Part shown: piece after piece, positions 2,852 to 52,420 of the stretch
Position numbering within the stretch: the stretch's first letter is position 1
Layout of the letters: each line of letters begins with the position of its first letter
Source of the DNA: Spirochaetia bacterium
Lineage (GTDB): Bacteria; Spirochaetota; Spirochaetia; SZUA-6; Bin103
Reading direction: 5' to 3'
Length of the DNA stretch: 64,000 nucleotides
NCBI GenBank assembly: GCA_965208575.1
Contig: CBDBOV010000002.1
Coordinates: 1 to 64,000, forward strand
Notes under the pieces: generated by a model
Told to the model about the DNA's origin: nothing
Databases searched by the model: none
Seen by the model: only the letters and a program-made list of their open reading frames with translations
Position numbers and translations under genes: made by a program

Positions 2852-3265
2852 GGCGCCATGATGCCCCGCCGGCAGGACAACGGGCAATTCCAACTTATGT
2901 GGAGGGTGGGAACGCCGAAAGCGGTAGCCGTGGACCGAAAGTGAGATGCATGAGGCAATATGGTGACTCCGTGATATGGAAGACGATGAAACCGATGCCC
3001 GAGCATCGCCGACCCACAGGAATTTCGGACCAGGCAGCGTGCCGTCCCGGCAGATCGTGAGCACGGAAAAAATCGCGAAAAAACTGCGCGCACCCCTTGA
3101 CGCGATTTTCGGGGCTCATGGTGGCTCGCTACGGCCCGCGGCGGTCCCTCCGACTGCCCCGGAACGACTTGGCCTCCGTTGCCGCGACAGCGCCCCGTGG
3201 CGCGGCCTTCCGGGCGCCGTTTCGGCGCAGTCCAGGGCTCGGAAAAATCTGTTATTTCCAATCCC

Positions 3266-3275
3266 ATGTTATACT
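3266..3275 (+). promoter_or_regulatory. Extended -10 promoter (TGn-TATACT) for a leaderless HNH transcript
   Basis: ATGTTATACT ends 7 nt before ATG 3283; no Shine-Dalgarno present. Confidence 0.55.
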
Positions 3276-3282
3276 TATGAGT

Positions 3283-5133
3283 ATGAGTGAGTCGTCTTCG
3301 CCCACCCCCTGGTCCACCGTCGCCGCGCTGCCCGACTACCTCCTGCTGGCGCAGACCCGGCAGCTCGCCCGCCACGAACAGGCGCTGCAGATCCTGGTGC
3401 TCGACCACCTGCGCGAGATCGAGGCGCGCAGCCTCCACCTGACCCGCGGGTATGGCAGTCTGTTCGACTACGTCGTGCACGAACTGGGCTACACCGCGGC
3501 CGCCGCCTGGCGGCGCATCAAGGCGATGCGGCTGTGCACCGGGACCGGCGCTGCGCGTGAGCTGCTGCAGGACGGCTCGCTGAACCTGAGCAACGCGGCG
3601 CAACTGCAGAACCTGTTCGAGCGCAACGACCGCAACCGGGGCCGCCCGCCGGTAAGTACCGGAGCAGGTGGCGCCGTGGGCGGTGCGCCACCGAGTGACG
3701 GCGCACCGGGCGAGCCGGGACCGGCGGCGCCGGCGCGCGGCGGCGAGCACGATCCGGCGCCACCGGCAGCCGGGCCGGTGCTGGACGCGGCGGCGCGGGA
3801 GAAGCTGGTCCGGCAGGCGGCGGGCAAGAGCACGCGCGAAGTGCAGCAGATGCTGGCCGAGGTGGACCCGGAGTTGGCGCAGCCGAGCGACCGGTTGCGC
3901 GCGCTCGGAGGCGGGCGCTGGGAGTTGAAGGCGGCGGTCGACGCGGAGTGCCGGCATGGGCTGGAGAAGCTGCTGATGCTGCTGTCGCACACGGATCCGC
4001 ACCTGACGCTGGGCGGGCTGGTGGCGCGGCTGGTGCGCGACGGCCTGGACCGCTACGACCCGGCTCGGCCACCGCGTGTGCGGCGTACGGGCGCTGGCGG
4101 CTCGGTCGACGGCGCAGGATCCGCGAGCACGCCGGCGCTACCGGTCAGCGGTGAGCTCAACGGTTCGCCGGCGAATCGCCACGCCGAGGCCGAACTCGGT
4201 CGGGCGTCGCGTGCGGTGACGCAGGACGGCGACGGTGGGGCGGTGTCGGCGGCGAAACAGCGTGCGGAGGACGCGTGCGGCGGCGCGAAGTCGGCGGCTG
4301 AGAATGACCTGCCCGGTCCCTCGGCCCCGAAGCGGCCTGCGGAAGTCGAGCATGGCGAAACGAACTCCACGGCGGTGCGGGATATTGTCCGCTGCTCCGA
4401 TTCGGCGCCGAACGAGTCCGCGCCGGTGGGGGACAGAGAGGGGCACACCACTTCGCTGGCGAAGCGCCACTCGGTCACCGGGCACGGCAGCGCGTCACGG
4501 GCGGCGGCGCCGAACAGCGGTGCGCACACCACTTCGCCAGCGAAGTGCCGATCCGAAGCCCAACCCGGGCGCAGGCCGCACGCGGTGGCACGGAACGGCA
4601 CCGGTCCGGCGGTTCCGGCGGCGAAGCGGGACACGGAGGCCGAGCGCGGCGGTTCGAAGTCCGCGCCGGTGCGGGACACGGTCCGGCGCTCGGAGTCGGC
4701 GGCGAAGCGGCTTGCGTACGCCGCCGGGCATGGCGCGGTGGGGCCGGCGGTGCGTTCGCCGGCAGTGGAGCGGCACCTTGCCGCGTTGCGCAGCCTCGGC
4801 GCGGTGCCGGGCTCCCGGTCGCGGTACATCCCGGTAGCGGTGAAGCGGGAGGTGTGGCGCCGCGACCAGGGTTGTTGCACCTATGTCGACCGCCGCAGCG
4901 GGCGGCGCTGCGGCTCCCGCTATCGGCTGGAGATCGACCACATCGTGCCGTTCGCGCTCGGCGGCGGCGCGGAGCCGCGGAATCTGACGCTCCATTGTCG
5001 AGCGCACCACAGGTTGCGCCACGCTCAGCGCCATGCTCACGCCGAGAGTGTGCCGAATGAAGCCCGGCGCGCTCCGGTCTCCGCGGTCGATCCGAACGAA
5101 CACGGGCGCACCGTCGGATCGCATGCGGTGTAA
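3283..5133 (+). CDS. HNH endonuclease with N-terminal helical (DUF222-like) domain and repetitive linker
   Basis: N-terminal LDHLREIEARSLHLTRGYGSLFDYVVHELGYTAAAAWRRIKAMR; C-terminal RYIPVAVKREVWRRDQGCC...DHIVPFALGG...NLTLHCRAHH. Alternative start at 3277. Confidence 0.85.
   Translation: MSESSSPTPWSTVAALPDYLLLAQTRQLARHEQALQILVLDHLREIEARSLHLTRGYGSLFDYVVHELGYTAAAAWRRIKAMRLCTGTGAARELLQDGSLNLSNAAQLQNLFERNDRNRGRPPVSTGAGGAVGGAPPSDGAPGEPGPAAPARGGEHDPAPPAAGPVLDAAAREKLVRQAAGKSTREVQQMLAEVDPELAQPSDRLRALGGGRWELKAAVDAECRHGLEKLLMLLSHTDPHLTLGGLVARLVRDGLDRYDPARPPRVRRTGAGGSVDGAGSASTPALPVSGELNGSPANRHAEAELGRASRAVTQDGDGGAVSAAKQRAEDACGGAKSAAENDLPGPSAPKRPAEVEHGETNSTAVRDIVRCSDSAPNESAPVGDREGHTTSLAKRHSVTGHGSASRAAAPNSGAHTTSPAKCRSEAQPGRRPHAVARNGTGPAVPAAKRDTEAERGGSKSAPVRDTVRRSESAAKRLAYAAGHGAVGPAVRSPAVERHLAALRSLGAVPGSRSRYIPVAVKREVWRRDQGCCTYVDRRSGRRCGSRYRLEIDHIVPFALGGGAEPRNLTLHCRAHHRLRHAQRHAHAESVPNEARRAPVSAVDPNEHGRTVGSHAV
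4164..4766 (+). repeat. Degenerate intragenic tandem array, about 81-bp period, palindromic core TTCG-N4-CGAA
   Basis: Cores at 4164, 4245, 4320, 4401, 4452, 4533, 4614, 4695 and 4755 (spacings 81,75,81,51,81,81,81,60). Confidence 0.8.
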
Positions 5134-5326
5134 GGCCGCGCTCCATCGCGCCGCCGATCCAGTTCGCCAGTCCCCGGATGTTCGCATCCGTGCCATCGAG
5201 CGGGTAGACCATGCTGCAATGACCTGCGTACCGCTTTCCGCGTTCGCACCCTTATGTGGAAGGCGACGGGCACGAGTCACGCGGTGGCGCCGGCGCTGCC
5301 GCTCTCCCGCGCGCATGCCGCCGAGG

Positions 5327-6457
5327 TCAGCGCGCTTCGAGGGGGAGCCAGCGGCGGGCGCGCGGACCGCGGTAGGTCGCGCGCGGGCGCAGCAGCACGT
5401 TGGAGTCGCGCTGCTCGATGGCGTGCGCCAGCCAGCCCACCACCCGGGCTACCGCGAACGCCGGCGTGAACCACTCGCGCCGGAAGCCGACGGCGTGCAG
5501 CAGGAGACCGGTGTAGAACTCCGCGTTGGTGTGCAGACGGGCCTGCGGGCGGTGCTCGGCGAGCACCCGCAGTGCCACCTGCTCGACGGCGCGCGCCTTG
5601 CGGTAGAGCGCCAGCACGTCGGCGCGGCCGGGGACCCGGGCCGCGATCAACTCCTCCAGAGCCGCGGCCAGCACGTCGGCGCGCGGGTCGCGCGTGCGGT
5701 AGACCCCGTGGCCGAAGCCCATCAGCCGCTCGCCGCGCGCCAGCATGGCGCGCAGGTTGTCCGCCGCCCGGTCGACGTGCGCGATGCGCTCCACCATCTC
5801 CAGCGCCGGCCCCGGAGCGCCCCCGTGGCGCGGTCCCTTGAGCGCGGCCAGCGCCGCCAGCGTGCACGACAGCAGGTCGGTGTGGGTGGAGGCGGCCACG
5901 CGCGCGGCGAAGGTGGAGGCGTTCAGCCCGTGGTCCATCATCGCGACCAGGTAGGTCTCCAAGGCGCGCACGGCGGCCGGGTGGGGCGGGCCGCCGCCGG
6001 CGAGATGCAGAAATGCTTCGACGTGGCCGGCACCGGCCGGCGGCAACTCGGGTTTGCCGCCGGCCCACAGGCGGGCGTAGCAGCCGGCTGCCATCATCAG
6101 GCCGGTGACGATCGCCACCGGCCCCGGATCGGACCCCGGCCGGCGCAGGTGGGCGGCCAGCGTCATCAGGGCGTCGACTGGCTCTACCCGGTCCGCGGCC
6201 GCCCGCCGCGCGGCCGCCAGCAGCGCGCCAGGCATGTGGCGCTCCCGCGCGAGCCGCGCTGCGAAATCCGCCAGATCGGCCGCGTTCGGCAGCCGGCGGT
6301 GGAACAGCAGAAAGCACGCCTCTTCGAACGAGCACCGGGGCGCGATCTCGTCGATGGCATGGCCGGCGACCGTCAGCCGGCCGCGCTCGCCGTCGATGTG
6401 TGTCAGCGACGTGGCCGCGACCGTTACCCCGCGCAGCCCGCCCGATTCGGAATCCAT
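5327..6457 (-). CDS. Citrate synthase-family protein
   Basis: DHGLNASTFAAR, GPRHGGA, GFGHGVYRTRDPRA; NAEFYTG where NVDF is canonical. Confidence 0.9.
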   Translation of the reverse strand: MDSESGGLRGVTVAATSLTHIDGERGRLTVAGHAIDEIAPRCSFEEACFLLFHRRLPNAADLADFAARLARERHMPGALLAAARRAAADRVEPVDALMTLAAHLRRPGSDPGPVAIVTGLMMAAGCYARLWAGGKPELPPAGAGHVEAFLHLAGGGPPHPAAVRALETYLVAMMDHGLNASTFAARVAASTHTDLLSCTLAALAALKGPRHGGAPGPALEMVERIAHVDRAADNLRAMLARGERLMGFGHGVYRTRDPRADVLAAALEELIAARVPGRADVLALYRKARAVEQVALRVLAEHRPQARLHTNAEFYTGLLLHAVGFRREWFTPAFAVARVVGWLAHAIEQRDSNVLLRPRATYRGPRARRWLPLEAR

Positions 6458-6488
6458 ACGGGGTAAAGTTCTCGCTCGTTTCGCTATT

Positions 6489-6520
6489 GTCAAGATTGAT
6501 CAAGTAATCAATATATTGAC
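6489..6520. promoter_or_regulatory. AT-rich inverted-repeat operator in divergent promoter
   Basis: ATTGAT-N6-ATCAAT (6495-6512) flanked by GTCAA...TTGAC in a 66-bp intergenic region. Confidence 0.6.
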
Positions 6521-6523
6521 CGT

Positions 6524-7873
6524 GTGGACGAGGTGAAGGATTCGCCGCACTTGACGGCGGCGGACGCGGCGCGCTTCCTGGGCGTGAAGACCGCGACCAT
6601 CTATGCATACGTGAGCCGCGGGCTGATCCGGTCCGAGCGCATCGGGCCGGGGCGCGAGCGCCGCTACCGGCGCGACGACGTGCTGCGCCTCAAGCGGCGC
6701 GCCGAGGTACGCGTCGATCCGAGCAGCGCGGCTCGCCATGCATTCGAACACAGCGCGGCACCGATCCTGGACTCTTCGCTGACCCTGATCACCGAACAGG
6801 AGCTGTACTACCGCGGACTCCCGGTGTCGGTGCTGGCGCGCGCGCACACGTTCGAGCAGGTGGTCGCGCTGCTGTGGTGCGGCGACCTGCAGGCGCCGGT
6901 CGCCGAGCTGGCACGGCCGGTGCCGCCGTTCGTGGAACGAACCTGGGTGCAGTCGGCGGGGCGTCCGCTGGACCCGTGGTTCGCCTTTCAATCGGTGCTG
7001 CCACGGCTGGCGGCCGCGGACCCTGCGGCCGAGGACCTGAACCCCGCCGCCGTCCGGCGCACCGGCGCGCGCATCCTGCTGGCGGAGGTCGCCTGCCTGG
7101 AACGCCTCCCGCCGCCGCCCGGCGGCAGCGCCCGCGGGGGGGCCGGTCCGGATGACGCGCCCGGCGGAGCGGCTGCGCACTCCGCGGCGCAGGCGCGGGT
7201 GGCGGCGGGAGGCGTTCCGGCCGTGGCGCCCGGCGGAATGGTGGCGCGCTCCCTGGCGCGGGCGTGGGGGGTGGCGCCCACCGAGCCGGCCGCCGCCTTG
7301 ATCGAGTCGGCGTTGATTCTGCTCGCCGACCACGAACTGAACGTCTCCACCCTGGCGGCCCGCACGGCCGCGTCGGCCCGTGCCAGCCCCTACCACGCGG
7401 TGCTGGCCGGGCTGGCCGCCGCGCACGGCGCCCTGCACGGCCAGGCGAGTATCCTGGTGGGGGATCTGCTGCGCACCGTGTCCCACCCGCGGCGTGCGCG
7501 CCGGGTCGTGGGCGAGTACCTGCGGTCGCGCCGGCCGCTGCCCGGCTTCGGGCACCGCGTTTACCGCGCCCGCGACCCGCGAGCCGCCGCGTTGCTGCAC
7601 CACCTGCGCGCGGCCGCACCCGCCCATCCGGCCCTTGCAGTGGCGGAGGCGCTGGCCGAGGCGGTCCACGAGATGGTGACCGACGCGCCGGTGAACGTCG
7701 ATTTGCCGCTGGCGGTGCTCGCCGCCGTACTCGGCTTGCCCGCCGGCGCTTCGGAGGCCCTGTTCATTGTCGCCCGCACCACGGGCTGGATCGCGCACGC
7801 GCTGGAGCAATATCGAGCCGGCGGGCTGCTGCGCCCCCGCGCCAGGTACGTCGGCCCTATTCCGGAGCGGTAG
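6524..7873 (+). CDS. HTH (excisionase/MerR-like) fused to citrate synthase-family domain
   Basis: N-terminal LTAADAARFLGVKTATIYAYVSRGLI; CS motifs DHELNVST, GALHG, GFGHRVY..RDPRA, NVD. Confidence 0.88.
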   Translation: MDEVKDSPHLTAADAARFLGVKTATIYAYVSRGLIRSERIGPGRERRYRRDDVLRLKRRAEVRVDPSSAARHAFEHSAAPILDSSLTLITEQELYYRGLPVSVLARAHTFEQVVALLWCGDLQAPVAELARPVPPFVERTWVQSAGRPLDPWFAFQSVLPRLAAADPAAEDLNPAAVRRTGARILLAEVACLERLPPPPGGSARGGAGPDDAPGGAAAHSAAQARVAAGGVPAVAPGGMVARSLARAWGVAPTEPAAALIESALILLADHELNVSTLAARTAASARASPYHAVLAGLAAAHGALHGQASILVGDLLRTVSHPRRARRVVGEYLRSRRPLPGFGHRVYRARDPRAAALLHHLRAAAPAHPALAVAEALAEAVHEMVTDAPVNVDLPLAVLAAVLGLPAGASEALFIVARTTGWIAHALEQYRAGGLLRPRARYVGPIPER

Positions 7874-7983
7874 CACGTCGGGTCGCATATCCGCACGCCG
7901 CTACGAGGCGCAACCGGACGCCTGCAGGACGTCTGCGAATACCGCTTGACAAACGGCCGCCGATCAGTAGGTTTACCTCACTC

Positions 7984-8238
7984 ATGGCGTACATCATCAC
8001 AGAGCCGTGCATTGGCACCTGCGACACCTCGTGCGTCGAGGTGTGCCCGGTGGACTGCATCCATCCGGCGGAAGGTTTCGACGACCCGGCGGACAAGCAG
8101 CTCTATATCGACCCCGACGAGTGCATCGACTGCGCGGCCTGCGTGCCCGAGTGTCCGGTCGATGCGATCTACGAGGAGAGCGAAGTGCCCGACAAGTGGG
8201 CGCACTTCATCGAGATCAACGCCGAATACTTCAGGTAG
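7984..8238 (+). CDS. Ferredoxin (7Fe/2x[4Fe-4S] type)
   Basis: CIGTCDTSCVEVCPVDCI and CIDCAACVPECPV; TTGACA-N16-TAGGTT upstream (7946-7973). Confidence 0.93.
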   Translation: MAYIITEPCIGTCDTSCVEVCPVDCIHPAEGFDDPADKQLYIDPDECIDCAACVPECPVDAIYEESEVPDKWAHFIEINAEYFR

Positions 8239-9882: not shown

Positions 9883-11253
9883 ATGAGCAGCATTTCAGGA
9901 CGGCCCGCGCGGGTCGCCATCGTGGGCAGTGGCCCTTCCGGATTCTACGCGGCCGACGCACTGATCAAGGCCGACCAGGACGTGACCATCGACATGTACG
10001 ACCGCCTGCCGACGCCGTTCGGCCTGGTTCGCGGCGGTGTCGCCCCCGACCATCCCAAGATCAAGAACGTGATCCGCATCTACGAGCGCACCGCCAAGGA
10101 TGCCGCGTTCAGCTTCCTCGGCAACGTGCTCGTGGGCCGCGACGTAAGCGTGGAGGAACTGCGCGCGCACTACGACGCGGTGATTTTTACCTGTGGGGCG
10201 GAGACCGACCGCACCCTGAACATTCCCGGCATCGAGCTGCCCGGCAGTCACACGGCGACCGAATTCGTGGGCTGGTACAACGGCCATCCGGACTACCTGG
10301 ACCGCTCCTTCGACCTGTCGCAGGAGGTGGCGGTGGTGATCGGCCAGGGCAACGTTGCCGTCGATGTCACGCGCGTGCTCGCCAAGACGGTGGACGAACT
10401 GCAGGACACCGACATCGCCGCCCACGCGCTCGACGCGCTCGCCGCGAGCAAGGTGAAGGAAGTGCACATGATCGGGCGCCGCGGGCCGGTGCAGGCGGCG
10501 TTCACGAACAAGGAGATCCGCGAGCTCGGCGAGCTCGCCGACTGCGACCTGGTGTTCAACGACCTCGGCGACTTCGAGCTGAATCCGGCCAGCCAGGCCG
10601 AGCTGGACGACCGCGCGAACATCGGCGCCGGCCGCAACTGGAAGGTACTGGAGGAGTTGCGCGTCCTGCAGCCGGCCGGCAAGAGCCGCCGCATCGTCGT
10701 GCACTTCTTCCGGAGCCCGCGCGAGCTGACCGGCAACGGCCGGGTGCGGTCGCTGGTGCTGGAGCGCAACCGGCTGGCGGGTGAGGCGAACGACCAGTGG
10801 GCGGAGGGCACCGGCGAGACCGACACCATGGCGTGCGGGCTGTTCTTCCGCAGTGTCGGCTATCGCGGCGTGGAGATCCCGGGCGTGCCGTTCGAGGCGC
10901 GGCGCGGGGTGTTTCCCAACGAGGCGGGGCGTATCGTCGACGACGGCGCGCCGGTACCGGGCATGTACGCTGCCGGCTGGATCAAGCGCGGCCCGTCCGG
11001 GGTGATCGGCACCAACAAGCCCGACAGCGTGGAGACGGTGCGGAAGCTGCTGGAGGATCTGCCCTCGCTGCCCGGTTGCGCAACGCCGGACACCGGGTCG
11101 ATTCAGGATCTGCTCGGCTCGCGCGGCGTTCGGGTAGTCAGCTACGCCGACTGGCAGAAGATCGACGCCGCCGAGGTGGCGCGCGGCAAGCCAAACGGCA
11201 AACCGCGCGAAAAGCTCACCACCGTGGCGGAGATGCTCGCCGTTCTGGACTGA
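9883..11253 (+). CDS. fprA: NADPH:ferredoxin reductase (FprA/adrenodoxin reductase type)
   Basis: [42 protein letters not shown]; TTGACA-N16-TATGAT upstream (9778-9805). Confidence 0.92.
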
Positions 11254-11362
11254 CGCTTCCGAGATTGGTCGAACACGGTGCCGGTTTGAGCGAGCATCGC
11301 TGCCCACTGACGCTTCCGCAAGTGGTAGAACACGGTACCGGTTGAGCGAGCACCGCTGCCCA
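11249..11362. repeat. Two-copy 57-bp imperfect tandem repeat
   Basis: ACTGACGCTTCCG...GAACACGGT...TTGAGCGAGCA.CGCTGCCCA starting at 11249 and 11306. Confidence 0.9.
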
Positions 11363-49022: not shown

Positions 49023-50114
49023 GTGATTGGTAGCAGGCTCAAGCTGGCTCGGTCTGCTGCCGGTCTGTCCCTTCGCGAACTGGAGGGGCGAATCGGCAGC
49101 CGGGTCACGGCACAGGCGATCGGCAAGTACGAACGCAACGAGTCGATGCCGGGGTCCGGCGTGCTCATCGCGTTGGCGAAGGCCCTGGGAGTTTCCGTCG
49201 AGTATCTGACCAGTGAGCAGGATTTGACGCTTGAGGCCGTCGAGTTCCGTAAGAAATCAATCGCGCGCAAGCGTGAGGAAATCATCGTACAAGCGAGAGT
49301 TATAGATCTCTTGGAGAGATACGTCTCGGTTGAGCAACTGCTGTCCATGCCAAGCGTGGAGTGGGACAAGCCGCGTGAAGCGCCCTATCCGGTGGATGGC
49401 GATCTGTCCGAAGTGGAGCAAGCGGCCATCAGCTTACGGACACACTGGGATCTCGGACGCAAGCCGATCCTCAGCATGGTCGAGCTCTTGGAAGAGTGTG
49501 GAGTCAAGATCCTCGCTTTGGAGTTGAGCGACATTGGCGGGTTGACCGCATATGCGCGGCGCGGTGGCAAGAATGCCGATGCCGTCATAGTTGTAAACCA
49601 CAAGGAATCGGGGGAACGGCAGAGATTCACGCTCTCGCACGAGCTGGGCCACTTGGTCCTTACGGTTGACGACAAGGTAAATTCGGAGAAGGCGGCTCAC
49701 CGGTTTGCGGGTGCGTTCCTCATGCCGGCCGATGCCGTGCGCACGGAGGTCGGCAGACGCCGCACGTCCATCGGCTGGAGCGAGCTGTTCAACTTGAAGC
49801 CGGTGTTCGGGGTGAGCGTGCAGGCAATCGTGTACCGGTGCCGGGATCTCGGAATCATCAACGATGCCCTCTACACGCGGTTGTTCCGGGATATGTCCAG
49901 GTTTGGCTGGCGCAGCCGCCCATACCGAGAGCCCCAGCCGATCAAGGCGGAGCGGCCCTCGCGGTTCGAGCGCCTCTGCTCTCGCGCCCTGGCGGAGAAC
50001 GTGATCTCCGAAGCCAAGGCGGTAGAGTTGCTCGGTGTCTCGGTTGGTGATCTCCGCGAACAGATGGAGAAGCCCCCGACAAGTGAATCGATATTGGACG
50101 GTAGTGCTGGATGA
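49023..50114 (+). CDS. XRE HTH fused to ImmA/IrrE Zn-metallopeptidase
   Basis: RLKLARSAAGLSLREL...AIGKYE; RQRFTLSHELGH, EKAAHRFAGAFLMP; strong AGGAGG RBS. Confidence 0.93.
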   Translation: MIGSRLKLARSAAGLSLRELEGRIGSRVTAQAIGKYERNESMPGSGVLIALAKALGVSVEYLTSEQDLTLEAVEFRKKSIARKREEIIVQARVIDLLERYVSVEQLLSMPSVEWDKPREAPYPVDGDLSEVEQAAISLRTHWDLGRKPILSMVELLEECGVKILALELSDIGGLTAYARRGGKNADAVIVVNHKESGERQRFTLSHELGHLVLTVDDKVNSEKAAHRFAGAFLMPADAVRTEVGRRRTSIGWSELFNLKPVFGVSVQAIVYRCRDLGIINDALYTRLFRDMSRFGWRSRPYREPQPIKAERPSRFERLCSRALAENVISEAKAVELLGVSVGDLREQMEKPPTSESILDGSAG

Positions 50115-50192
50115 CCCCCGTGACCGTCCCGTGTTGTATTTCGAAGTGCTTGGCTCGGCGGGCGGCTGGGAGCTGCGGGGGGCAACCAACTA

Positions 50193-50746
50193 ATGACAAT
50201 GCCCGGTCAGAGTCACATCGACCAAGTGCGCGACGCTCTTCGGCGCTGGCCCATAGGCGGCGCATCGGTCAGGAACCTGCGCGGTATCCGGGATTTGCGG
50301 GTGCCCTTCGACTATCCCGTCTGCGTTCTGGCCGGTCCCAACGGTTGCGGCAAATCGACGGTCCTGTTCGCATGTGCGTGCGCCTACCGCGTTCCGGGCC
50401 GCGGACCACGAGAGTTCGTCCCGAGTTTGCTGTTCCCGAATTTCGTGAGTCTTCAGCAGCCGGAGTTCTCGGACTCTGCCGCGCGCACCGAGATCGAGTT
50501 CCACTATCTGCACCACGGCGATCGGCTTTCCATGCTGTGGCGGCGTGGCAAGTCATGGGGGCGGAGCTACCTGGGCCGCACGGGTGTCGCGAGGCGAAAC
50601 CTGCCGTGGGGTCACTGGCGTCCGATCTCAATCGGACGGTTCCCGATGTGGCCCGGATCGTCGGCCAGCGGGAAGCCGAGGCGAACGCCATGCCCGAGTT
50701 GACCGGCGCGCTGGCCGAACAGATCAACGCCTGGAGTCGACTGTGA
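50193..50746 (+). pseudogene. ABC/OLD-like ATPase with large internal deletion
   Basis: VRNLRGI and Walker A GPNGCGKS; after about 50590 a C-terminal-like segment continues in another frame to TGA 50746. Confidence 0.7.
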
Positions 50747-51412
50747 CCGAGCAGCAACCCAATTCACCGAGGGACCAGCCCGCAGGCTCGGAGTGGAGCT
50801 GGCCCGGGGCGCGCTGGTGGCGCGTCGACCTCCATGCCCACTCCCCGGCGTCCCACGACTTCGGCAGCGAAGCCGACCGGGGCGATCCGGACTGGGTGGC
50901 CTGGATTACCGCTGCCCGTGACGCGGGTCTGGATGCCGTCGCTATTACCGATCACAACACGGCAGCGGGGGTAGGACCTCTCCAGGACGCGGCCTCGCGA
51001 GTGGAGAATAGTCCGGTTCTCTTTCCCGGTGTGGAAGTTACGGCCAGCGATGGCGTTCATCTGATAGTGTTGTTCGACCCGACTTGTAGCGACCAGTACA
51101 TTGAGGACTTTCTTTCCCGAGTGAAGATCCCGGTAGACAAGCGCGGCGATGACACTGCTCGATCATCGTTCAGCGTTGAACAGATTCTCGACGAGTGCCC
51201 CGATGACGCACTCATCGTCGGCCCGCACGTCAACCAGCCACGTGGACTGCTCGACCTCTCCGGGCAGGAACGGCGCGCGGTGTTGCGTCATGCGAGCCTC
51301 GCCGCGGTCGAGGTTGTCCCCGACTACCCTGTCGACGAGTCCTGGATCGACGGCAGCAGGTCGGAGATCGGGCGCAGGCTCCCGAGGCTATGGAGCTCGG
51401 ACAGCCACGCTC
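50743..51412 (+). pseudogene. PHP-domain/ATPase (TrlF-like) 5' part, interrupted by IS110
   Basis: DLHAHSPAS, AITDHN, PGVEVT, HLIVLF, SDSH. Confidence 0.85.
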
Positions 51413-52420
51413 CTGAGAAACAACAATCAGGCGGCCTCCGGGACAAGCTCATAACCGAGTGCGTGTGCCTGCCTTCGGAGCCGGCGTTCAAAGCGGCGCC
51501 GGTCCTGGCGCTCCTCGGCGGCGAGGAATCGTAGGCCACGCGATGCGTGATCAGATGGTAGATGATCCGAGCCAGTTTATGCGCGACTGCAGTGGTCGCT
51601 TCGGGAGTACCCAGACGCGCCCGCATGCGGCGGAAGTGCTGGCCCAGGGCCGATGGGCTGCGGTACAACGACTGGGTCGCCCAGTGCAGCGCCTCGATTG
51701 GTGCCCCGACCGGATAGTGTTGTTCGACCCGACTTGTAGCGACCAGTACATTGAGGACTTTCTTTCCCGAGTCCGCATCGATTCCCTCATCCGGTGGGTC
51801 GTCGACCGCGCCGGGTGAGATCCCGGTAGACAAGCGCGGCGATGACACTGCTCGATCATCGTTCAGCGTTGAACAGATTCTCGACGAGTGCCCCGATGAC
51901 GCACTCATCGTCGGCCCGCACGTCAACCAGCCACGTGGACTGCTCGACCTCTCCGGCCGTGGCAGGAACGGCGCGCGGTGTTGCGTCATGCGAGCCTCGC
52001 CGCGGTCGAGGTTGTCCCCGACTACCCTGTCGACGAGTCCTGGATCGACGGCAGCAGGTCGGAGATCGGGCGCAGGCTCCCGAGGCTATGGAGCTCGGAC
52101 AGCCACGCTCCTGAGAAACAACAATCAGGCGGCCTCCGGGACAAGCTCATAACCGAGTGCGTGTGCCTGCCTTCGGAGCCGGCGTTCAAAGCGGCGCCGG
52201 TCCTGGCGCTCCTCGGCGGCGAGGATGCTGTCATCGTAGGCCACGCGATGCGTGATCAGATGGTAGATGATCCGAGCCAGTTTATGCGCGACTGCAGTGG
52301 TCGCTTCGGGAGTACCCAGACGCGCCCGCATGCGGCGGAAGTGCTGGCCCAGGGCCGATGGGCTGCGGTACAACGACTGGGTCGCCCAGTGCAGCGCCTG
52401 GGCGGCCCGATTGGTGCCCC
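51063..52420. repeat. Imperfect tandem duplication (about 650-700 bp) of the PHP gene / IS110 junction, probably an assembly artefact
   Basis: 51063-51712 recurs from 51713 with small indels and a roughly 46-bp stray piece of IS110 sequence near 51772-51817. Confidence 0.85.

Follow-up and report, generated by a model that had tools for sequence, protein, structure and literature searches.

What is an array of DNA palindromes doing inside the coding sequence of a nuclease gene? The question is raised by a locus of a Spirochaetia bacterium (GenBank assembly GCA_965208575.1), of which positions 1 to 64,000 of contig CBDBOV010000002.1 were analysed; this whole stretch of 64,000 nucleotides (nt) is referred to as the window. 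An HNH nuclease-like open reading frame (ORF) of 616 amino acids (aa) lies at 3283..5133 on the + strand and reads as a ParB/KorB-like helix-turn-helix, a ribbon-helix-helix, a repeat linker and an HNH domain. An earlier sequence-only reading had noticed the palindromic cores in the linker, proposed that selection may act on the nucleic acid rather than on the protein, and named binding sites for the encoded protein, RNA hairpins and scars of a self-targeting selfish element as possible explanations. The answer favoured here is that the cores form an internal operator array for the encoded protein.

Palindromic array in the nuclease gene

The linker contained an array of eight palindromic cores (4162..4708, without strand), whose 16-mers start at 4162, 4243, 4318, 4399, 4450, 4531, 4612 and 4693. 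The period of the array was 81 bp, which corresponds to 27 codons. Nine cores had been listed originally, and all nine positions were in one frame with intervals of 81, 75, 81, 51, 81, 81, 81 and 60 bp, but only eight of them held. The exact TTCG-N4-CGAA sequence was present at four of the nine (4164, 4401, 4452 and 4533), four more had one mismatch, and the core at 4755 was missing its right arm. With a matrix derived from 144 homologous cores, the eight good window sites were ranked at the top and 4755 fell outside the top 14; weak additional in-frame sites were located at 4288 and 4501. Two perfect palindromes and one extended dyad had also been reported and were recovered, the former as 12-bp palindromes at 4164 and 4401 and the latter as CACTTCGC-CA-GCGAAGTG at 4530-4547.

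The probability of obtaining such dyads by codon choice was determined with a null model in which the peptide was fixed and synonymous codons were resampled from local usage. At least four exact cores were obtained in 0 of 20,000 draws, and eight cores with at most one mismatch in 0 of 5,000 draws, the maximum being six, so that synonymous resampling never reproduced the array. The intervening sequences, previously described as strongly diverged, turned out to be related (74% identity over 91 nt and 67-73% over 52 nt). Judged by these alignments, the units are in-frame tandem duplicates rather than unique spacers.

Selection on the DNA palindrome across homologues

For the silent-site measurements, 41 genes (40 loci and the window gene) were used whose reading frame was unbroken between the helix and the end of the linker, and 159 cores were picked by peptide alone. 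The family consensus site was determined to be CTTCG-N4-CGAAG with a fixed gap. One silent arm position was T in 142 of 156 cores compared with 314 of 3235 in the linker background, the other was G in 154 of 155 (background 1562 of 3235), and the core serine codon was TCG in 154 of 159 (background 134 of 283). The central silent position of the cores was free (G 101, A 53, C 5). Homologues that keep S-x-x-K with palindrome-breaking codons had been named as the observation that would speak against the idea; the peptide-picked cores keep the T and the G instead. The consensus occurred 179 times in 19,467 linker bases with 3.3 expected, whereas other gap lengths occurred 0-2 times, and base pairing ended at the 16-mer, with none further out.

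The genes were divided into nine subfamilies, between which silent identity was 0.59 compared with 0.46 by composition, i.e. close to saturation; silent T was retained in 22 of 233 between-subfamily comparisons. The core T was the majority base in seven of the nine subfamilies, the exceptions being that of L070 (1/2) and that of the window (2/5 S..K cores). Since silent sites are nearly saturated and yet the core T was kept in seven of nine subfamilies, shared descent is insufficient to explain the core dyad.

At the protein level, 813 homologues were obtained from 7,999 scored candidates; the best 120 of the 813 were examined, and motif counts refer to 118 of them. SAAK, SAPK and SPAK made up 408 of the 562 S-x-x-K/N motifs, and the distance between successive motifs was most often 27 aa (208 intervals), well ahead of any other value. 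The claim that the peptide varies while the dyad persists was therefore only half right: the silent arms are near fixed, but the peptide is constrained as well. The number of motifs per linker was 0-13, consistent with the proposed variation in unit number.

A distant K/N-rich clade (113 of 215 parsed proteins, out of 377), the one named member of which belongs to Bdellovibrionales, had the motif T-[S/F]-x-x-K-[S/L/W]. Here the residue after the motif was one whose codon can start with T in 131 of 171 cases compared with 270 of 1670 after other lysines; Trp followed 26 of 171 motifs and 1 of 1670 other lysines, and the Ser:Phe interchange was 60:36. The S/F and S/L/W alternatives would share a first-base T, which would complete an ACTTY-N6-RAAGT dyad. 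Together with the silent-site conservation and the fixed-peptide null, this pattern strongly supports the conclusion that selection acts on the DNA palindrome itself, as had been suggested from the window gene.

Position of the sites

The position of the array within the gene is evident from the sequences. In 53 genes, 206 sites were found in linker 2, between the DNA-binding and nuclease coding regions (19,415 bases), and 0 in linker 1, which is also variable (5,834 bases). In 307 proteins, 421 motifs were counted in linker 2 and 30 in linker 1, corresponding to 9.2 and 1.9 per 1,000 aa. Core spacings of 42 and 84 bp recurred, each of them in 7 of 13 groups. In Spirochaetia linkers, spacings of 42, 84 and 126 bp, equal to 4, 8 and 12 helical turns, occurred across subfamilies. 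Helical phasing was nevertheless rejected as evidence, the spacing values not being independent and the 81 bp of the window being off phase. The AT-rich copy L043 carried a dyad with the same arms and a centre one base shorter in linker 1, about 304 nt past the helix anchor.

Predicted fold, dimer and recognition helix

The model of aa 11-264 had a mean predicted local distance difference test score (pLDDT) of 87.8. A ParB/KorB-like DNA-binding domain with a disordered insert was predicted at aa ~30-200 (3370..3882, + strand), with the presumptive recognition helix at aa 72-87 and its Trp76 encoded at 3508-3510 (+ strand). The best comparisons were those with KorB 8qa8 (Z 7.4, root-mean-square deviation (rmsd) 3.2, 99 residues aligned) and ParB 6s6h (Z 7.4, rmsd 9.5, 115 aligned); the DNA-binding domains of Spo0J and SopB matched as well. 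The last 50 residues resembled the TraM N-domain 3omy (Z 5.5, rmsd 2.0, 48 aligned), in agreement with a ribbon-helix-helix-like dimerisation/DNA-binding module at aa 213-264 (3919..4074, + strand), which formed a strand-strand interface in the dimer model. The homodimer model scored 0.74 and the best of three controls 0.02. The mark applied to dimer scores was attained by 20 of 30 proteins whose solved structures are pairs, compared with 1 of 23 whose solved structures are single chains. Contact agreement between the runs was at least 85% and pLDDT at least 76, although the score may partly stem from likeness to solved ribbon-helix-helix dimers. The models thus predict a dimeric window protein in which a ParB/KorB-like helix-turn-helix and a ribbon-helix-helix are joined to the HNH domain. 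Dimers of the ParB/KorB type recognise palindromes of 13-16 bp.

The helix and the site were compared in 372 parsed proteins (of 485). In the 258 proteins whose helix has Trp, Tyr or Phe preceding the RR, 369 T[SF]xxK, 5 TPxxE and 11 TPxxK motifs were counted; in the 114 proteins with no aromatic residue there, the counts were 11, 64 and 19, respectively. At the DNA level, TPxxE corresponded to a compensated CTCCG-N4-CGGAG palindrome in L002, L042, L055 and L070. Both changes, in the helix residue and in the motif, were found in three separate clades of a tree of 54 hand-picked proteins in which the helix was masked. On one chromosome, OZ253561.1, two site variants occurred, each following its gene lineage. 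The data are suggestive of a site variant that follows one residue of the predicted recognition helix.

Mobile cassette

The gene is contained in a cassette of 2,348 bp (2904-5251), whose ends are evident in the sequence. The terminal inverted repeats of 23 bp (left, 2904..2926, + strand; right, 5229..5251, - strand) are identical at 21 of 23 positions and are bordered by a perfect 9-bp target-site duplication, TTATGTGGA, at 2895..2903 and 5252..5260 (both + strand). The earlier statement that the gene stands alone was thus true in part: the cassette has no other long coding ORF, but the gene sits within inverted repeats. No transposase was found inside the cassette, its one long coding ORF being matched by HNH families only. 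No further copies of the ends were found in the window or in the 78 listed loci, and the phage and plasmid collections gave nothing better than E 0.3 with them.

Two further subfamilies had their own unrelated ends, making three end pairs in all. In the first (L051, L053 and L072), the ends were accompanied by 9-bp duplications. In the other, the duplications were of 8 bp, perfect in L064, L067 and L069 and with one mismatch in L001 and L055; this class of ends may be ISL3-like. Many loci had no recognisable ends. A loose scan for inverted ends with duplications was non-discriminating (19 real and 18 control hits, 79 sequences), and therefore only end pairs recurring in a subfamily or as strong as those of the window were used. 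An IS1-like fragment beside the end copy of L001 was considered as the insertion sequence (IS) family of the ends and rejected, since it looks like a separate nested element.

The WRRIKAM helix is common to the window gene and the L051/L053/L072 subfamily, whose ends are wholly different, which makes it unlikely that the encoded protein is an end-binding transposase. The cassette would instead be moved by a transposase from elsewhere. Several copies lie near restriction-modification genes: a type IIG gene with Eco57I/MmeI domains (locus positions 4366-8046, - strand) ends just upstream of the copy at L030, an HsdS fragment (locus positions 4330-4800, - strand) lies upstream of that at L011, and pieces of the 3' end of the type IIG gene are carried inside the cassettes upstream of many copies on OZ241863.1.

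Promoter, upstream region and neighbouring genes

The HNH nuclease domain (4906..5025, + strand) was matched by PF01844 at aa 542-581 with E 7.3e-06, above the cut-off, and its D-H, N and C-x-A-H-H residues are present. An extended -10 element, TG-n-TATACT (3267..3275, + strand), lies 7 nt 5' of the ATG and is the predicted leaderless promoter; the close placement of a -10 to the ATG was common to most of the 22 homologue upstream regions examined. The element itself and its resemblance to the homologues agree with the leaderless promoter claimed before, but the sigma-70 scan of the window gene region did not find a promoter, and activity of the element is presumed from its sequence and layout. 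A segment of about 200 nt upstream of the promoter (3055..3266, + strand) with an A-tract is loosely conserved in the window clade and one related clade; it includes a TTGAC box with no clear -10. The consensus fold of the upstream region was weak (-6.6 kcal/mol over 9 sequences), leaving a structured RNA unsupported there, the Rfam search gave zero matches at the locus, and the short upstream frame in the cassette had no NCBIfam match. In L003, L013, L023, L026 and their relatives, the -35 box was located inside a small dyad, TTGACTCAA, 17 nt before TATACT, which the window copy does not have; the ribbon-helix-helix module might use this promoter dyad as an operator.

The cassette is flanked by a gene of the histone-deacetylase family on one side and by a divergent citrate-synthase-like pair (5327-7873) on the other, one gene of which is fused to an HTH_17 domain. 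Elsewhere in the window, two 57-bp tandem copies, 87% alike, were found at 11249-11362, just past an oxidoreductase-like ORF. The region 49023-51989 presumably comprises a regulator-like ORF with helix-turn-helix and metallopeptidase parts, a broken ATPase-like ORF, a PHP-like ORF and an IS110-like remnant; a single exact TTCG-N4-CGAA is located within it at 50860.

Family and distribution

The named members among the best 120 of the 813 homologues were proteins of Spirochaetaceae metagenome-assembled genomes. The N-terminal half was matched by 5,125 representatives at E <=0.001. A genome scan with the conserved-helix pattern gave at least 78 loci, at least 58 of them in Spirochaetia/Spirochaetales and at least 20 in Bdellovibrionales. 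The copy number was high, since a single chromosome, OZ241863.1, carries at least 23 of the loci. The closest DNA relative of the window gene among the matches listed had about 71% identity. L038 and L054 have common flanking DNA, which suggests vertical descent. A homologue of the N-terminal half was not found in the phage and plasmid collections; PADLOC assigned no family to the window protein and gave weak HNH matches only for two relatives, and the sequence search of solved structures returned HNH parts only.

Some Bdellovibrionales copies (L005/L006, and L035/L036/L057 on OZ241848.1) were arranged in same-strand tandem, 2.5-3.2 kb apart, and had other linker repeats (GSAPGP, SASEQSDR) with the palindrome absent. 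In the linker of L008 and in P0368 and P0373, an in-frame palindrome read WIPAFAGMT; it resembles a repeat of the repetitive extragenic palindromic (REP) type.

Proposed mechanism and its weighing

In our proposal, the locus constitutes a non-autonomous mobile cassette with a DUF222-like HNH nuclease gene as its sole passenger. The two ParB-like helix-turn-helix heads of the protein dimer would bind CTTCG-N4-CGAAG, copies of which lie within the part of the gene that encodes the disordered linker and would increase in number through tandem duplications that keep the frame (81 bp in this clade). Once bound, the dimers would restrict nuclease output, the likeliest route being a roadblock to RNA polymerase past the DNA-binding half and before the HNH half; as a second route, the sites may soak up the protein. 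With such restraint, a chromosome could maintain tens of copies of a gene that is potentially toxic. An internal operator array is favoured because the sites are confined between the DNA-binding and nuclease coding regions. Among the three explanations offered earlier, binding sites for the encoded protein fit best, as judged by the fold matches, the dimer model and the helix-site counts. By these data the encoded protein is probably the ligand of the palindromes, and an operator array for the encoded dimer, by which the nuclease restrains itself, is preferred as their purpose with modest confidence.

Several observations weigh against this proposal. Few cores are as decayed as those of the window gene itself. 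The fold Z-scores are moderate, all below 8 and in the range that the tool calls common, and Foldseek gave nothing at E <=0.001 with the model, though ParB-family chains recurred in both lists. In P0139/P0204 the aromatic residue was lost and TSxxK retained, and the helix-site link comprises only three independent pairs, never opposed, for which the sign test was not significant (p 0.25-1). The evidence from the K/N-rich clade is at the protein level alone. The site was found in 0 of 14 delimited Bdellovibrionales linkers with DNA, despite a similar helix, and the array is therefore dispensable in some lineages. Unlike in a classical operator, the promoter has no site, the upstream regions of the 53 genes containing one site in 12,455 bases, and the 30 protein-level motifs of linker 1 do fall outside the favoured interval.

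A further elaboration of the operator proposal is rather unlikely. In it, the number of occupied sites would decide whether the single ORF gives the complete nuclease or a DNA-binding product lacking the nuclease part, thereby counting the copies of the element; HNH released on empty sites or on its own locus would drive spread, the site and the helix would co-evolve, and unrelated ends would repeatedly capture the gene. Self-targeting has also to be considered without such control: the sites could recruit the dimer, the tethered HNH would nick its own gene, and repair would change the unit number, convert paralogues and aid persistence. The HNH motif was intact in 35 of the 41 in-frame genes, the gene was found within three different pairs of inverted ends, and the linker is so variable (0-13 motifs) that even the close relatives P0001, P0003 and P0004 have 7, 4 and 5 motifs; an intact HNH reading frame was retained in only 35 of the 58 Spirochaetia loci among the matches listed. 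Length changes and frameshifts can also result from slippage within GC-rich repeats or from errors of assembly, however, and if the protein cut its own gene, loss of the sites should be favoured, whereas they are retained. This explanation is considered unlikely, and the earlier suggestion of selfish-element scars holds for the mobile cassette in which the gene rides and only hypothetically for self-cutting. If the palindromes bound a host regulator instead of the encoded protein, e.g. a DNA-damage repressor, it would agree with the LexA control of most M. tuberculosis 13E12-family genes (PMC3381160), with the fact that DNA-confirmed arrays come from Spirochaetia loci only, and with the exact site occurring 6 times in 401,894 flanking bases where 1.1 were expected. 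At least two of those six sites, however, lie in a linker-like remnant on L007, the motif is present at the protein level also in the clade whose one named member is from Bdellovibrionales, and the two variants on OZ253561.1 follow the gene lineage, which leaves a host regulator quite unlikely.

The linker might also be read as RNA, with hairpins or processing marks and a repeat-spacer array giving guide RNAs. The regular period and the dyad symmetry agree with it, and positions 7/10 were paired in 17 of the 27 flank-defined clusters into which the 159 cores fell at one threshold (11 expected). Yet the stem is only 5 bp, the loop is variable and no pairing continues outside the core; the variant with a sense-strand C.A mismatch was observed 15 times and the wobble-compatible T.G once. 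The array RNA folded no better than shuffles (z 0.34), and Rfam gave no match. The spacers are interrelated in-frame duplicates, and the phage collection returned three matches only (E 0.2-0.7) with the array region. Both the hairpins and the repeat-spacer character suggested before are accordingly unsupported, and an RNA function of the array is improbable. Hardly tenable, and largely refuted, is a repeat kept for its peptide only, i.e. S/T-x-x-K in a disordered linker with a dyad resulting from codon bias and shared descent. The S-x-x-K/N peptide is well conserved, and cores within a gene or subfamily share ancestry, the 159 cores collapsing to 3 clusters at a looser threshold; but a rare silent T was kept across nearly saturated subfamilies, the fixed-peptide null was rejected, and S/F and S/L/W are alike in their first base, not in their chemistry.

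To our knowledge, DUF222-like HNH proteins are common multi-copy genes whose target is not known. One branch of them would now gain a predicted fold, a predicted site of 14-16 bp and a natural variant whose specificity goes with a single residue of the helix. Read from the gene itself, the predicted site is a first testable target for an uncharacterised nuclease family. Two codes are moreover overlaid here with unusual clarity, in that silent positions of a coding region preserve up to 13 copies of a DNA site. If the roadblock is real, mobile elements would have in it a means of carrying toxic nucleases that was not found in the literature searched, and mycobacterial 13E12 genes are open to a like analysis.

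Comparison with known systems

The nearest known group is DUF222 (PF02720)/REP13E12 of Actinobacteria, the members of which likewise have a helical N-terminal region, a C-terminal HNH and several dispersed copies per genome, a trait shared by the loci on OZ241863.1. PMC3381160 describes 13E12 genes as LexA-controlled insertion elements with phage attachment sites, and PMC10589994 lists the DUF222/13E12 group among repetitive elements. The link by sequence was weak: PF02720 matched 5 of 73 relatives (best E 8.9e-05) and not the window protein, and was present in 23% of the members of an Atlas neighbour cluster. Neither an internal palindrome array nor a ParB-like fold was found described for 13E12 genes in the literature searched. 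In mobile insertion cassettes, as defined in PMC4337579, a passenger lies between IS-like inverted repeats with a target duplication and no transposase of its own. The window unit is alike in its inverted ends, 9-bp duplication and absence of a transposase, and differs in that its passenger encodes a nuclease and carries a site array itself, and in that three subfamilies have three unrelated end pairs.

The window protein resembles ParB-parS and KorB-operator systems in the predicted four-helix domain with the helix-turn-helix, the ribbon-helix-helix, the dimer and several palindromes of 14-16 bp. In contrast to those systems, no N-terminal CTPase domain was matched in Pfam or NCBIfam, and there is no room for one because the DNA-binding match begins near aa 30; a ParA neighbour is absent, an HNH is fused C-terminally and the sites are inside the gene. 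I-TevI, a homing endonuclease, represses its own expression via an operator at its own gene (PMC2988022), a precedent for an endonuclease under its own control, and is likewise a modular nuclease with a DNA-binding domain and a long linker. It is an intron-encoded GIY-YIG enzyme with one promoter operator, whereas the window family would consist of HNH dimers with up to 13 in-gene sites and a promoter without any.

CRISPR, TIGR-Tas and OMEGA (IscB, HEARO) systems also have an HNH domain beside a periodic array, but the IscB match was confined to HNH (25.5 bits, cut-off 175), and the window array codes for protein, its spacers are duplicates of one another, and neither an RNA family nor a conserved structure upstream was found. 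REP/RAYT systems combine an HUH transposase with many extragenic palindromes, in contrast to the HNH and the six exact sites in the flanking bases here. The sequence-only reading had known of no characterised system with this layout, and no description of the combination was found in the literature searched, supplements and most subscription papers lying outside its scope. The parts are known, namely the DUF222-like HNH (by the weak link above), the cassette and the ParB-like domain; judged from that literature, their combination with a silently conserved internal palindrome array appears to be new.

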